A stretch of 45,848 nt of DNA from contig JAYEOM010000042.1 in NCBI GenBank assembly GCA_034722955.1, positions 2,165 to 48,012 of the forward strand, in the 5' to 3' direction. Shown piece by piece: positions 5,371-9,826 of the stretch (its first letter is position 1; every line of letters starts with the position of its first letter). The notes beneath the pieces were generated by a model, which saw nothing but the letters and a program-made list of their open reading frames with translations, was not told the origin of the DNA and made no database searches. Origin of the DNA: Campylobacterota bacterium. GTDB taxonomy: Bacteria; Campylobacterota; Campylobacteria; Campylobacterales; Sulfurovaceae. Both the position numbers and the translations under genes were made by a program.

Positions 5371-8300
5371 GTGAAAAAAAATATAGAGACAATTGATGGA
5401 AATGAAGCTGTAGCTCGCGTAGCTTATAAACTAAATGAAATCATAGCTATATATCCTATCACCCCGGCATCTCCTATGGGTGAACTTAGTGATATCTATG
5501 CTACACATGGTGAACAAAATATATTTGGGACAGTTCCCGATATTATGGAGATGCAGAGTGAGGGTGGTGCTAGCGGTACGATACATGGTGCACTGCAGAG
5601 TGGTGCATTGACTACAACCTTTACAGCTTCACAGGGTCTACTGCTGATGATCCCAAATATGTATAAGATAGCGGGTGAACTTACACCGACAGTCTTCCAT
5701 GTAGCTGCTCGCTCTCTAGCTGCACAGGCTCTATCTATATTTGCAGATCATAGTGATGTGATGTCAGTGCGTCAGACAGGTTTTGCTATGTTGGGTTCCA
5801 ACTCAGTACAAGAGGCACATGATTTTGCCTTGATAGCTCAGTCGGCTACACTCAAATCACGCATACCTTTTTTGCATTTTTTTGATGGATTTAGAACTTC
5901 ACATGAGGTCAAGAAGATTGAGATGCTAGATGAAGTCACTATGAGAGATATGATAGATCATGGCCTTGTCGCGGAACATAGAGAGCGTGCATTGACACCT
6001 GACAATCCATTTGTCAGAGGTACATCACAAAACCCTGATATATATTTTCAGGGTAGAGAGAGTGTCAACAGCTATTATGACAAGACACCCGATCTTGTTC
6101 AGGAGACGATGGAGAGGTTTTCCATATTAACAGGGCGGAGTTATCGCCTTTTTGACTATGTTGGCTGTAGAGATGCAGAGCGGATCATCATCATAATGGG
6201 CTCTAGCTCAGAGGCAGTCGAAGAGAGTGTAGAGTATCTCAATGCGATAGATGAGAGAGTAGGTATGGTAAAGGTAAGACTCTATAGACCATTTTCTATA
6301 AAACACTTCATAGATATACTTCCCAAGAGTACCAAGTCTATAGCTGTTTTGGATCGTACAAAAGAGCCTGGATCATTGGGTGAGCCACTATATTTAGATA
6401 TCGTCTCTGCTCTCAATGAATCAAAAGAGGATCACACTCTTGGCTTTGAGATGCCTCATATCATCGGTGGCAGATATGGTCTATCCTCCAAAGAGTTCAC
6501 GCCGGGTATGATCAAAGCGATATTTGATGAGTTGAGCAGAGAGAGACCAAAAAACCACTTTACGATCGGTATATACGATGATGTCACAGGCTCTTCACTG
6601 AAGTGGGATGAGCATTTTGCCATACCAAACAGAGATATCTTCCAAGCCATATTTTTTGGACTCGGATCTGATGGAACAGTAGGAGCCAACAAAAACTCTA
6701 TCAAGATCATAGGGGGTCAGACTGACAACTATGTCCAGGGTTATTTTGTATATGACTCGAAAAAATCAGGCTCCATGACCACTTCGCACCTTCGCTTTGG
6801 CTCAGAGCCTATACACTCAACTTACCTGATAGATAAAGCTGATTTTGTGGCATGCCACCAGAGTCTATTTATGGAGAAGTTTGATATTTTGCAACATGCC
6901 AAAAAAGGAGCAGTTTTTCTACTAAATTCACCTTTTGACCAAGAGCATGTCTGGAGACGACTGCCTCGTGTGATACAGGAGGAGATCATAGATAAAGAGA
7001 TCAGGTTTTATGTGATTGATGCTTATAGAGTAGCAAAAGAGAGCCGAATGGATCGCCGTATCAATACTGTGATGCAGACCTGTTTCTTTGCTATTTCAGG
7101 TGTTTTGCCACATGATGAGGCTATCAAACATATCAAAACCTCTATCCAAAAAACTTATGGTAAAAAGAGCAAAGAGATAGTAGAGCTGAACTTCTCTGCT
7201 GTAGATAATGCCCTAGATCATCTCAAAGAGGTAGATATACCCAAAACCGCAGAGAGTAGACTTCCTCTGGAGCCACCCGTCAAGGGAAAGATGAGTGAGT
7301 TCGTTAGCAGTGTTACTGCACATATTATCGAGGGCAGGGGAGATGAACTGCCAGTGAGCAGTATCCCCGCAGATGGAACATGGCCAAGCGGCACAACAGA
7401 GTATGAAAAACGAAACATTGCACAGGATATACCTCTCTGGGATCCGGATGCCTGTATCCAGTGCAACAAGTGTGTATTGGTCTGTCCTCATGCTGTCATC
7501 CGCTCCAAAGTAGTGGATGAGAGTGAACTTGATGATCTCCCTGATATTTTCAGAAGCATCAAGGCTAAAGGTAAAAAATTCAATGAGAGTGAAAGATTTA
7601 CTATTCAAGTATCTATGGAGGATTGTACCGGATGCTCACTATGTGTAGAGGTCTGTCCAGGGAGGAGCAAAGCAGACCCCGAGCTAAGGGCTATCAACAT
7701 GAGACCAAAACTCCCACTGATGGAAGATGGTATCAAAAACTGGGACTACTTTTTAGGTCTGAGTGAATATGATCGTTCCAAACTCAATCATACCAAAGTA
7801 AAAGAGAGTCAACTGCTACAGCCTCTTTTTGAGTTTTCCGGTGCTTGTCCGGGGTGTGGTGAGACACCATATATCAAATTGGCGACTCAACTTTTCGGCG
7901 ATCGTATGATCGTTGCCAATGCAACAGGGTGTTCATCTATCTATGGTGGCAATCTACCTACAACCCCTTGGACCAAAAATCAAGAGGGACGAGGTCCAGC
8001 ATGGTCAAATTCACTATTTGAAGATAATGCAGAGTTTGGTCTAGGCTTTAGGCTGGCAATAGACAAACATGAGGTGCAGGCGAAAGAGATACTAGCAGAA
8101 CTTGGTGAATATATAGACCCAGAACTCTCAAAGGCTATATTCTCTGCAGATCAACATAATGAAGCTGATATTTTTGAGCAGAGAGGACGAGTCGAAGAGT
8201 TAAAGGATCAGTTGCATACCATACAGACTGATGAGGCAAAAGATCTCTTGACTCTTGCCGATTATCTGGTGAAAAAGTCAGTCTGGATCATCGGTGGTGA

Positions 8301-8925
8301 TGGCTGGGCATATGATATCGGCTATGGTGGGCTAGATCATCTCCTCGCTAGTGGCAAAAATGTCAATATATTGGTACTTGATACTCAAGTATACTCCAAT
8401 ACAGGCGGTCAGCAGTCCAAGGCTACACCTACGGGAGCTGTTGCCAAATTTGCAGCTGGAGGAAAAGCAGAACTGCCAAAAGATTTGGCACTGATGGCTA
8501 TCCCATACGGCAATGTCTATGTAGCACGAGTAGCGATGGGTGCGAGTGACACGCAGACACTCAGAGCATTTATAGAGGCAGAACGATATGATGGACCATC
8601 ACTCATCATAGCCTACTCTCACTGTATAGCACACGGATATGATCTAAAGCATGGCATGGATCAGCAGAAAAAAGCCGTCGAGTGTGGTCTATGGCCGATA
8701 TTTAGATACAACCCAGAGCTAAAACACTCCGGAGAGAACCCTATGAAGCTAGACTACAAAGGACCAAAGATCCCCGTCAAGGAGTATATGTACAACGAAG
8801 TGAGATTCAAAATGGTTGAAAATATGGATGCCAAAGTAGCCACAGAGTTTCTAGAGATAGCTACCGATCATGCAAAAGAGATGTATAGGCGTTATGTAGA
8901 TCTGAGTGAGATGAAGCAGGATTAG
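5371..8925 (+). CDS. nifJ: Pyruvate:ferredoxin (flavodoxin) oxidoreductase, single-chain
   Basis: DGNEA, YPITPAS, EMQSEGGA, GLGSDGTVGANK, two CxxCxxCxxxCP ferredoxin motifs, FSGACPGCGE, TPP motif GGDGWAYDIG. Confidence 0.97.
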   Translation: MKKNIETIDGNEAVARVAYKLNEIIAIYPITPASPMGELSDIYATHGEQNIFGTVPDIMEMQSEGGASGTIHGALQSGALTTTFTASQGLLLMIPNMYKIAGELTPTVFHVAARSLAAQALSIFADHSDVMSVRQTGFAMLGSNSVQEAHDFALIAQSATLKSRIPFLHFFDGFRTSHEVKKIEMLDEVTMRDMIDHGLVAEHRERALTPDNPFVRGTSQNPDIYFQGRESVNSYYDKTPDLVQETMERFSILTGRSYRLFDYVGCRDAERIIIIMGSSSEAVEESVEYLNAIDERVGMVKVRLYRPFSIKHFIDILPKSTKSIAVLDRTKEPGSLGEPLYLDIVSALNESKEDHTLGFEMPHIIGGRYGLSSKEFTPGMIKAIFDELSRERPKNHFTIGIYDDVTGSSLKWDEHFAIPNRDIFQAIFFGLGSDGTVGANKNSIKIIGGQTDNYVQGYFVYDSKKSGSMTTSHLRFGSEPIHSTYLIDKADFVACHQSLFMEKFDILQHAKKGAVFLLNSPFDQEHVWRRLPRVIQEEIIDKEIRFYVIDAYRVAKESRMDRRINTVMQTCFFAISGVLPHDEAIKHIKTSIQKTYGKKSKEIVELNFSAVDNALDHLKEVDIPKTAESRLPLEPPVKGKMSEFVSSVTAHIIEGRGDELPVSSIPADGTWPSGTTEYEKRNIAQDIPLWDPDACIQCNKCVLVCPHAVIRSKVVDESELDDLPDIFRSIKAKGKKFNESERFTIQVSMEDCTGCSLCVEVCPGRSKADPELRAINMRPKLPLMEDGIKNWDYFLGLSEYDRSKLNHTKVKESQLLQPLFEFSGACPGCGETPYIKLATQLFGDRMIVANATGCSSIYGGNLPTTPWTKNQEGRGPAWSNSLFEDNAEFGLGFRLAIDKHEVQAKEILAELGEYIDPELSKAIFSADQHNEADIFEQRGRVEELKDQLHTIQTDEAKDLLTLADYLVKKSVWIIGGDGWAYDIGYGGLDHLLASGKNVNILVLDTQVYSNTGGQQSKATPTGAVAKFAAGGKAELPKDLALMAIPYGNVYVARVAMGASDTQTLRAFIEAERYDGPSLIIAYSHCIAHGYDLKHGMDQQKKAVECGLWPIFRYNPELKHSGENPMKLDYKGPKIPVKEYMYNEVRFKMVENMDAKVATEFLEIATDHAKEMYRRYVDLSEMKQD

Positions 8926-8949
8926 ATGGACATCTCCTTGGGATATCTC

Positions 8950-9136
8950 AGTTGAAAGGGTACGCGATATGGAAATTTTATTTTCAGTACTGTTTTAATA
9001 CTTGGAGTGGTTAGAGTCGCGATTATGTGGCTTGACCATAAAAAGTGTAAAAGGCAAAAGAACACTGATTGCGACAAGTAGTCACACGAGACTTAGAGAA
9101 GTGGATTTCTCTAGGTTTCAGTGTACCCTTTCCACT
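8950..9136 (+). ncRNA. Structured RNA / type I toxin-like mRNA with long-range SD-sequestering duplex
   Basis: 8950-8965 pairs with 9121-9136 (10-bp perfect core GAAAGGGTAC/GTACCCTTTC). 13-bp hairpin at 9088-9119 whose non-Watson-Crick pairs are G-U on the plus strand. Confidence 0.5.
8969..9081 (+). pseudogene. Frameshifted small hydrophobic peptide, type I toxin-like
   Basis: ATG 8969 after AAAGGG SD. One extra T in the TTTT run at 8981-8984 gives MEILFFSTVLILGVVRVAIMWLDHKKCKRQKNTDCDK (TM helix plus basic tail). As sequenced it stops at TAA 8996. Confidence 0.45.
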
Positions 9137-9158
9137 CATAAACTGCAGAAGATCAGGA

Positions 9159-9419
9159 TTAGACCATAAGCTCCTGCTTTAGCTTCTCCTGATTGAGTTT
9201 TTTGACCAGTTTCCTTCGGAGTAAAATATACTGTTCATTGTTGAGGTTTAATAATTTCGCATTTTCTATTTGATCTCTCTCCTCTGCTATCATCTGTAGT
9301 AGTTTGTACTCTTTTTTGGTCAATCTTTTTCTAAGTATTGGTATAAGATCCTCTTCGCTTTTGAGTGGTTTGATCAATATATTGATATTTGCTTCTATTG
9401 TGTTGTTGAGTCTAGACAT
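9159..9419 (-). CDS. Hypothetical protein (possible HTH)
   Basis: AAGGA RBS; last gene of the plsC-crcB run; RLTKKEYKLL resembles a LuxR/sigma4-type HTH start. Confidence 0.7.
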   Translation of the reverse strand: MSRLNNTIEANINILIKPLKSEEDLIPILRKRLTKKEYKLLQMIAEERDQIENAKLLNLNNEQYILLRRKLVKKLNQEKLKQELMV

Positions 9420-9427
9420 CTGTTTCC

Positions 9428-9826
9428 TTAGAGTTGCCCTTTGGCAAAGTGTAGAACCATCATATAGCCGATACCAGCCATAAATATAGTTCCGAAGAGA
9501 TTGAGTGCCATATTGGCAAAAGCATGAGCATATTGACCTGCTTCAAGCAAGAAGAAGCTTTCGATGGCAAAGGTAGAGTAGGTTGTCAATGCACCGAGTA
9601 CTCCTGTCACCAGAAATGATTTGAGGTGTGGGGAGAGTGTAGTGTTGAGATGAAACCAAGCAAAGAGTACCCCGATAGCGAGGCTTCCTATCAGATTGAC
9701 AGCTAGTGTACCAAAGGGGAGAGTATGGACGATGTGCCGATTGACAAATCCGTTGATCATCATACGAGATACGGCACCTATAGCACCACCGCTAGCGACT
9801 GCGAGAATGGTTAACCAGTTCATCAT
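9428..9826 (-). CDS. crcB: Fluoride efflux channel CrcB/Fluc
   Basis: GGAIGAVSR, PFGTLAVNLIGS, TGVLGALTTYSTF. Confidence 0.96.
   Translation of the reverse strand: MMNWLTILAVASGGAIGAVSRMMINGFVNRHIVHTLPFGTLAVNLIGSLAIGVLFAWFHLNTTLSPHLKSFLVTGVLGALTTYSTFAIESFFLLEAGQYAHAFANMALNLFGTIFMAGIGYMMVLHFAKGQL

Follow-up and report, generated by a model that had tools for sequence, protein, structure and literature searches.

Does the gap downstream of the pyruvate:ferredoxin oxidoreductase (PFOR) gene, in a 45,848-nucleotide stretch of Campylobacterota DNA (the whole stretch that was analyzed, hereafter the window), hold a type I toxin-antitoxin locus? An original prediction, made from the letters alone, placed at positions 8950-9136 the mRNA of a small membrane toxin whose Shine-Dalgarno (SD) sequence is hidden by long-range pairing with an element near the 3′ end. 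Comparison with relatives suggests an answer in two parts. The element belongs to a family that, judged from conservation, covariation and architecture, is probably a previously undescribed type I toxin-antitoxin family of Sulfurovaceae-type Campylobacterota. The window copy itself (8940-9136) is almost certainly a dead, non-functional relic of that family.

A second copy lies on another contig of the same genome (G000:C24). It has an intact open reading frame (ORF) of 36 codons and the same GGGTAC/GTACCC modules, and its post-stop hairpin differs from that of the window in sequence and has the same shape. DNA searches of 61 genomes returned matches in four (G006, five; G012, three; G013 and G021, one each), and genome contigs yielded 34 loci (peptide alignment A1), all from metagenome-assembled genomes labelled Sulfurovum, Sulfurovaceae, Nitratifractor, Epsilonproteobacteria or Campylobacterota, or in two cases with other Campylobacterales names. 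After removal of identical sequences there were 37 distinct genomic copies. Metagenome contigs gave 131 loci, of which 80 were kept, with 48 further distinct full-length copies. A covariance model that extends from the SD to the 3′ element (R1; 191 positions, 28 base pairs) matched 14 of the 151 genomes of the window's taxonomic family, in 4 of 11 genera and with 1-5 copies per genome, and had no true match in 140 genomes from 25 other families of the order. The only R1 match outside the window's taxonomic family (G176, L080 1524-1700, 32.9 bits) was rejected as spurious: it falls on the membrane helix at the N-terminus of a longer, histidine-kinase-like ORF, which opens with a peptide similar to the family's N-terminus. 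Plasmid and phage records gave no match by tblastn, and IMG/VR viral contigs held no relative. The relatives come from deep-sea and brine bacteria related to the window genome, and the predicted confinement to free-living Campylobacterota was borne out.

The encoded peptide carries much of the argument. Intact homologous ORFs, whose existence the original prediction had named as a check, were found in 31 of the 37 genomic copies (four are disrupted, and two could not be judged because of Ns or a contig end) and in 69 of the 80 metagenome loci. Across the 31 genomic ORFs the pooled ratio of nonsynonymous to synonymous polymorphism (pN/pS) is 0.39, the median pairwise ratio of the corresponding substitution rates (dN/dS) is 0.27, and the entropies summed by codon position are 19.9, 14.2 and 31.4. 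By these sequence statistics the ORF is under purifying selection and appears to be conserved as a protein. At the N-terminus of the peptide is one hydrophobic helix, and the tail is rich in lysine and aspartate; Kyte-Doolittle hydropathy averages 2.05 over residues 3-22 and −2.68 over the tail, where there are on average 4.9 Lys/Arg and 3.6 Asp/Glu. Identity between family peptides is 50-89%. The family matches no known protein or RNA family, in line with the suggestion that it might be new. Six peptides searched against Pfam and NCBIfam at E up to 10 gave nothing above cut-off (best E 0.02-0.17, to unrelated families), PHROGs gave nothing below E = 0.05, and the ESM Atlas offered no informative neighbor (best score 0.80). 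Two unnamed entries turned up in public protein sets, and 19 representatives out of 1.84 billion matched with E no higher than 0.001. Rfam models had no match in this region of the window with the cut-off at E = 10, nor in the cassettes of six full loci with it at E = 1.

Alignments that included flanking DNA gave an intact cassette of ~330 nt, of which window 8940-9136 is the core. On the plus strand, a −10 box stands 5-6 nt before the conserved 5′ end GTACCCTTT in all 30 copies that retain the region (24 TATAAT, 3 TATGAT, 2 TAAACT and 1 TACAAT). Within the leader of ~115 nt are a hairpin and a GGGGTAGTGTTCTTCTTTTC-like segment that hardly varies. Nearly all family copies then have the module GAAAGGGTAC, 3-5 nt before the start codon of an ORF of 34-37 codons, which is followed by a stop-codon hairpin, a post-stop hairpin (10-14 bp) and the nearly invariant element GTGTACCCTTTCC. 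On the 3′ side of GTGTACCCTTTCC come ~45 conserved bases that read on the minus strand as a periodic T-rich tract and a TAnAAT box, 3 nt before GGAAAGGG. Of the copies evaluated, 32 of 34 genomic and 68 of 72 metagenomic ones have this convergent box, at a fixed spacing to GGAAAGGG. Its third position may be C, A, G or T and the other positions are fixed, the pattern expected of a −10 box; Campylobacterota promoters are not known to have a conserved −35 element. An ORF-internal antisense site (TTTACA-18-CATAAT, 9051..9022 in the window; also called in L002 and L052) was rejected as the main antitoxin promoter because its two hexamers are Cys-Lys and Ile-Met codons read on the opposite strand and become poor in every copy in which those codons are changed. 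The antisense −10 box at the 3′ end is the only conserved one that is non-coding.

Eleven genomic copies scanned also have an ATG(A/T)CAAT-N-TGACA-like motif ~25-35 nt upstream of TATAAT (L048, L056, L059, L060, L062, L063, L065, L066, L068, L073 and L077), which may bind a regulator.

Set against this layout, the window copy consists of the following features.

8940-9136, plus strand: remnant core of the family's small-ORF mRNA (SD region through 3′ element), at whose limits homology to relatives begins and ends
8950-8965, plus strand: 5′ arm of the inverted repeat, with an SD-like GAAAGGG (8954-8960) 8 nt before ATG 8969
8969-8998, plus strand: start codon and nine codons of the disrupted ORF, with a premature TAA at 8996-8998; the first eight codons are in frame with intact relatives
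8993-8996, plus strand: run of four Ts (T4), site of a 1-nt deletion and frameshift; same-context relatives have T5
8999-9081, plus strand: part of the ORF beyond the frameshift, out of frame, with what remains of the hydrophobic helix, the IMWL motif and the charged tail (TAG at 9079-9081); it aligns with family peptides
9066-9084, plus strand: hairpin enclosing the stop codon (TGATTGC/GTAGTCA), seen in the fold and with 6-8 both-side changes per pair in the family
9088-9119, plus strand: post-stop 13-bp hairpin (arms 9088-9100/9107-9119), seen in the fold and with the strongest covariation in the family
9121-9136, plus strand: 3′ arm of the inverted repeat; this is the conserved GTGTACCCTTTCC, which hardly varies among 76 full-length copies
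9046-9136, minus strand: equivalent of the family's predicted ~90-nt antisense RNA, with the fold kept and the promoter missing
8917-8926, no strand: left copy of the 10-nt direct repeat CAGGATTAGA found in the repeat search, overlapping the PFOR stop codon
9154-9163, no strand: right copy of CAGGATTAGA, also from the repeat search, overlapping the stop of the 86-codon minus-strand ORF

The inverted repeat, the hairpins and the frameshifted small ORF are real and above chance. As predicted, arm 8950-8965 is complementary to arm 9121-9136, at 14 of 16 positions, and the repeat search reported 8950-8963/9123-9136 as a 14-nt inverted repeat (93%). Dinucleotide shuffling of 8926-9160 produced a 16-nt inverted repeat with no more than two mismatches in 8 of 1000 trials. 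The plus strand folds at −78.7 kcal/mol (z = −5.62), a value equalled by none of 200 shuffles, and the minus strand at z = −3.10, equalled by 1 of 200. The 13-bp hairpin was found as described, and so was the alternative stem ACACTGA/TCAGTGT (9063-9069/9118-9124), which is part of the closing helix of the predicted antisense RNA. The claim that the wobble pairs are G·U on the plus strand applies to both non-canonical pairs of the 13-bp hairpin (G·U and U·G). For the SD/3′ duplex it is half right, being true of 8964·9122 and not of 8953·9133, which is a U·C mismatch.

Homology to relatives extends only from 8940 through 9134-9136, as judged from DNA matches, which span query positions 15-209 of 8926-9160, and from the flank alignment. 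R1 matches 8945-9134 over the whole model (positions 1-191) with 176.5 bits. The flank alignment also shows the promoter, ~95 nt of the leader and the antisense promoter region replaced by unrelated sequence. A promoter and terminator scan detected no promoter-like or terminator-like site on the plus strand within 8700-9500, and TAnAAT is absent from the minus strand at the equivalent window position. The predicted inactivation by a 1-nt deletion agrees with the relatives, since all 16 genomic and all 26 metagenomic copies of the same context have T5 where the window has T4. The frame that ends at TAG 9079-9081 is open from 8956. Adding one T to the first T-run does open a 37-codon frame, as proposed, but the relatives place the lesion in the second run, 8993-8996, which is why residues 5-10 of the peptide repaired in that way are unlike the family.

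Two further explanations had been offered for the broken frame. Mis-sequencing is unlikely. Contigs from three DNA runs (X1, X2 and X3, at depths of 19, 27 and 30) cover 8600-9500 without gaps, and a contig from a fourth (X4) matches 8949-9165 without differences; all four have T4, so that the deletion cannot be put down to the deposited assembly. A single study produced the four runs, three of them are possibly the source of this DNA, and contigs hide minor variants. Switching by slippage fails because the promoter and most of the leader are lost (as is the antisense promoter region), so that slippage could not turn the copy on. In Arnion et al. (2017), a functional module has both promoters and an intact ORF; the window copy has none of these. 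The most that can be expected of it is transcription as a structured 3′ tail to the PFOR mRNA, 15 nt past whose stop codon it begins.

The window copy is not alone in its decay. L021/L046, the relative nearest to it (85% identity), lacks both leader and SD and reads TACAGT at the antisense hexamer. In L072 and L078 the 5′ part is replaced, the ORFs of L073 and L160 are broken by a 25-29-nt insertion, and a 1-nt insertion brings L150 to a stop. Insertions of ~25-34 nt that start with GCCC and end with GGGGTG occur in the ORFs of L073 and L160 and in the leader of L131, and resemble a tiny repeated insertion sequence. In X1-X3, short contigs with depths up to ~340 (versus 19-30 for the contig of the window itself) cover only the conserved part of the ORF (window 8993-9050); their loose ends resemble other copies, which indicates that other family members are abundant in the same samples.

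Does RNA structure point to transcripts from both strands? The family stems covary, as the original prediction had asked of a covariance model. In an alignment of 28 full-length copies (A2), 91.8% of the cells of the three predicted helices are paired versus 79.6% after shuffling, with none of 500 shuffles as high. Thirteen pairs have changed on both sides; most belong to the two hairpins, post-stop (8 of its 9 pairs) and stop-codon. A minus-strand alignment (A4; 27 sequences from the predicted antisense start to the U-rich tract, with L047 left out for a hairpin deletion) shows both-side changes in 10 of 10 pairs of the post-stop hairpin. Its consensus fold has 98.7% of cells paired versus 84.8% when shuffled (0/500) and 13 compensatory pairs, counts made on the same alignment from which the fold was derived. 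The closing helix, in which the 5′ end AAGGGUACACAGA pairs with the 3′ part UCUGUGUUCUUU, is paired in every A4 sequence, and two of its positions are G·U in 26/27 and 17/27 sequences, which on the plus strand would be C·A. This strand-specific G·U signal is the best computational support for the predicted ~90-nt antisense RNA.

What masks the SD in intact mRNAs was approached by folding the 28 full-length mRNAs singly and reading the main partners from the minimum free energy structures. The SD core is predicted to be paired in all 28 (mean unpaired probability 0.06; mean probability of pairing with the 3′ element 0.12). Its partner is a U-rich leader segment in 20 of the 28, another leader segment in 7 and the 3′ element in 1, and the 3′ element pairs instead with a GGGGUAG leader segment in 24 of 28. 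The SD-3′ duplex is thus probably not the main mask that the original prediction took it for, since the leader pairs with the SD core in 27 of 28 mRNAs. RNAalifold agrees with the single folds and also pairs leader GUGUUCUU with AAGAACAC near the ORF end. Pairing was counted for four helices in an alignment of 76 copies (A5). SD/3′ element is 87.5% paired, with three pairs (nine cells) changed on both sides and 18 A-to-G changes that keep G·U. Leader GGGGU/3′ ACCCU is 98.9% paired with no pair changed on both sides, GUGUUCUU/AAGAACAC is 94.7% paired with one such pair, and UUUUC/GAAAG is 89.0% paired with three. Covariation among 28 or 76 sequences cannot pick the SD partner because the segments are almost invariant. 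In the modelled folds, a regulatory switch based on the SD-3′ duplex is not supported for functional copies. The duplex looks clean in the window because the leader has been lost and the SD module is the only partner left to the 3′ element. A truncated relic can in this way show a cleaner "regulatory" duplex than functional copies do, because the competing partners have been deleted.

How does such a locus compare with known type I systems? In hok/Sok, the mRNA is closed by pairing of its 5′ and 3′ ends and is inert until processed, the toxin is a small membrane peptide, and decayed chromosomal copies are common. The family shares with it a predicted closed mRNA, a membrane-peptide ORF and decayed copies. 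It differs in that six family peptides have no Pfam Hok/Gef match at E up to 10 and there is no Rfam Sok match, no overlapping leader ORF was seen in the family, and the antisense candidate lies at the 3′ rather than the 5′ end. The original prediction also credited Fst and Ldr mRNAs with 3′ processing, which does not seem to fit those systems. For Ldr/Rdl, TisB/IstR, Ibs/Sib and the other curated families, there was no match to a peptide model (Pfam/NCBIfam) or an Rfam model.

The AapA/IsoA systems of Helicobacter pylori, which belong to the same phylum, are closer in several respects. AapA-D/IsoA-D are listed in T1TAdb (PMC8594479). As described by Arnion et al. (2017, PMC5416894), the full-length AapA1 mRNA is 253 nt, its 5′ untranslated region (UTR) pairs with the 3′ end while the SD is hidden, loss of 30 nt at the 3′ end activates it, IsoA1 pairs with its first 76 nt, and H. 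pylori locus II, with neither promoter nor ORF, is regarded as non-functional. Like these systems, the family has a small peptide ORF on a ~250-280-nt mRNA, several chromosomal copies per genome, a predicted 5′-3′ contact (24/28 mRNAs) with SD masking (28/28), and non-functional promoter- or ORF-less loci that recall locus II in that account. The likeness to AapA/IsoA and hok that had been drawn does not extend to the antisense strand, where the best promoter candidate is convergent at the 3′ end, whereas IsoA lies opposite the 5′ UTR and ORF start. Other differences are the length of the peptide (34-37 residues versus 30 for AapA1 in PMC5416894) and an SD that stays masked after in silico 3′ trimming. 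A further difference is that R1 had no true match in the 140 genomes from other families of the order.

The T1TAdb paper (PMC8594479) covers 24 families and places antisense overlap on the 3′ side in Gram-positive families and the antisense RNA 5′ of or within the mRNA in Gram-negative ones; for Fst/RNAII and SprA1, it puts the interaction outside the overlap. A convergent antisense RNA over the 3′ end of the toxin mRNA is what the family would share with Fst/RNAII, TxpA/RatA, SprA1 and BsrG-type systems. With Fst/RNAII and SprA1 there is the further likeness that the family's predicted antisense 5′ end AAAGGGUAC also complements the mRNA 5′ end GUACCCUUU. Unlike the Gram-positive 3′-overlap families, this one has Gram-negative hosts and no Pfam, NCBIfam or Rfam match. 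Our literature search, which did not extend to subscription journals, found no such locus for Sulfurovum or other non-Helicobacter, non-Campylobacter Campylobacterota and turned up only a review on H. pylori.

Two hallmarks of type I systems were found, a conserved ORF for a small (<60 aa) hydrophobic peptide and, as an in silico prediction, an mRNA fold that masks the ribosome-binding site. In the mechanism that we propose, a plus-strand RNA of ~280 nt would fold so that a 20-nt leader segment pairs with the SD, the 3′ part of the ORF and the 3′ element, and the mRNA closed in this manner would go untranslated. The convergent promoter would give an antisense RNA of ~90 nt that is complementary throughout to the 3′ UTR and the final ~12 codons; its pairing would block activation and/or trigger degradation. 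Any peptide that was translated would insert into the inner membrane and arrest growth. A more specific design is possible, if on the doubtful side: a hybrid of a hok/AapA-like leader-closed mRNA with a Gram-positive-style convergent 3′ antisense RNA, built on a 9-10-nt module in triplicate. The module GUACCCUUU is present at the mRNA 5′ end and again near the 3′ end, and its complement forms both the SD and the antisense 5′ end, so that the antitoxin could contact both ends of the mRNA. Under such a design the 3′ element and the leader would compete for the SD.

Several observations weigh against a type I assignment. An E. coli-type promoter scan misses both −10-only promoters and calls the ORF-internal antisense site, and a canonical intrinsic terminator is predicted on neither strand. 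The long-range helices covary weakly. Trimming 14 or 55 nt from the 3′ end in silico leaves the SD paired, which leaves a hok/AapA-style activation step unsupported. If the mRNA ended right after the post-stop hairpin, the 3′ element would be antisense-only and there would be no real 5′-3′ closure. About half of the sampled copies lie beside ordinary housekeeping genes. Finally, antisense control of a small membrane protein does not by itself make that protein a toxin.

This last point leads to the alternative with most to recommend it, that the product of the ORF is a small membrane protein that does no harm, for example a regulator or an accessory subunit, that a cis-antisense RNA and a structured leader tune its expression, and that the window copy is a pseudogene of it. 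The evidence is indeed one of conservation and not of toxicity, purifying selection on the ORF would suit such a protein, no known toxin family matches, and several copies adjoin IspDF, PurE, DnaE, Mfd, UDG or NosL. Yet only 14 of 151 genomes carry the family at all, with up to five divergent copies in one genome; decayed copies are frequent; and others of the copies adjoin type II toxin-antitoxin and defense genes (HigB, a HepT/MntA-type nucleotidyltransferase pair, HicB, a TIR-domain gene), an integrase fragment or RHS-repeat genes. Together with the SD masking predicted in every copy and the dedicated convergent antisense promoter box, this patchiness, decay and neighborhood fit type I toxin loci, where such traits are typical, better than small housekeeping proteins, where they are unusual, and we consider a harmless protein unlikely. 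For the window copy alone, exaptation as a structured 3′ UTR or terminator-stabilizer of the PFOR mRNA would be compatible with its being a relic rather than opposed to it. No promoter or terminator separates it from the PFOR stop codon, its fold is very stable, and all family helices are intact although coding capacity is lost. This role is nevertheless distinctly improbable: no U-tract follows the structure, and a different gene comes after PFOR in those same-genus genomes that were examined, so that the arrangement, absent from relatives, offers no conservation that would show selection.

The original prediction had itself named a third alternative as refuting, namely that the inverted repeat represents the ends of a miniature inverted-repeat transposable element (MITE), with CAGGATTAGA as the target duplication. 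MITEs and repetitive extragenic palindromic (REP) sequences are likewise short, structured, multi-copy and intergenic, the element is patchy in its distribution, and the perfect 10-nt direct repeat flanks the window copy. The arms of the inverted repeat are internal, however, lying 23 and 17 nt from the direct repeats. The family differs from such elements in having an ORF under purifying selection, promoter boxes on both strands, a low copy number and copies that are divergent (50-89% peptide identity) rather than near-identical, and in lacking terminal inverted repeats; the module repeated at the ends of the full-length cassette is direct. The 10-nt direct repeat occurs at the window copy only, and by our own estimate ~0.2 exact 10-mers are expected by chance in 700 nt. 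No empty site was found for comparison, because the flanking genes are neighbors in no relative. MITE ends are hardly tenable as an explanation, and a type I toxin-antitoxin family remains the preferred reading. If it is correct, this may be the first 3′-convergent antitoxin RNA in a Gram-negative lineage. The more than 100 aligned natural variants provide comparative data on the silencing of toxin mRNAs, and in chemolithotrophs of vents and brines the family could serve to mark genome plasticity.

The intergenic stretch 8926-9158 sits between two convergent genes. On the plus strand is PFOR (5371-8925; Pfam POR_N, POR, EKR, PFOR_II and TPP_enzyme_C), and on the minus strand an 86-codon ORF without a Pfam family (9159-9419), with the CrcB gene next to it. 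Window 5371-9826 was compared with L034, L040, L042, L038, L039, L043 and L044. In none of 13 other same-genus genomes did one match span the PFOR end and the 86-codon-ORF/crcB block; genomes with both had them on different contigs, and the sequence beside each gene was unlike that of the window. At two of three PFOR loci checked, a DHO_dh-like gene follows PFOR (Pfam-confirmed in G001). By this comparison the gene order of the window is specific to this genome, which puts the locus at a gene-order breakpoint or rearrangement junction. The 86-codon ORF is conserved beside crcB in same-genus genomes, with matches from 9159 on in G001, G009, G012 and others. The perfect CAGGATTAGA repeat brackets the entire intergenic element; microhomology at a rearrangement, duplication and chance are all possible origins. 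At L023/L045, the same 16-nt string, part of a palindromic REP-like hairpin, is found just upstream and just downstream of the cassette.

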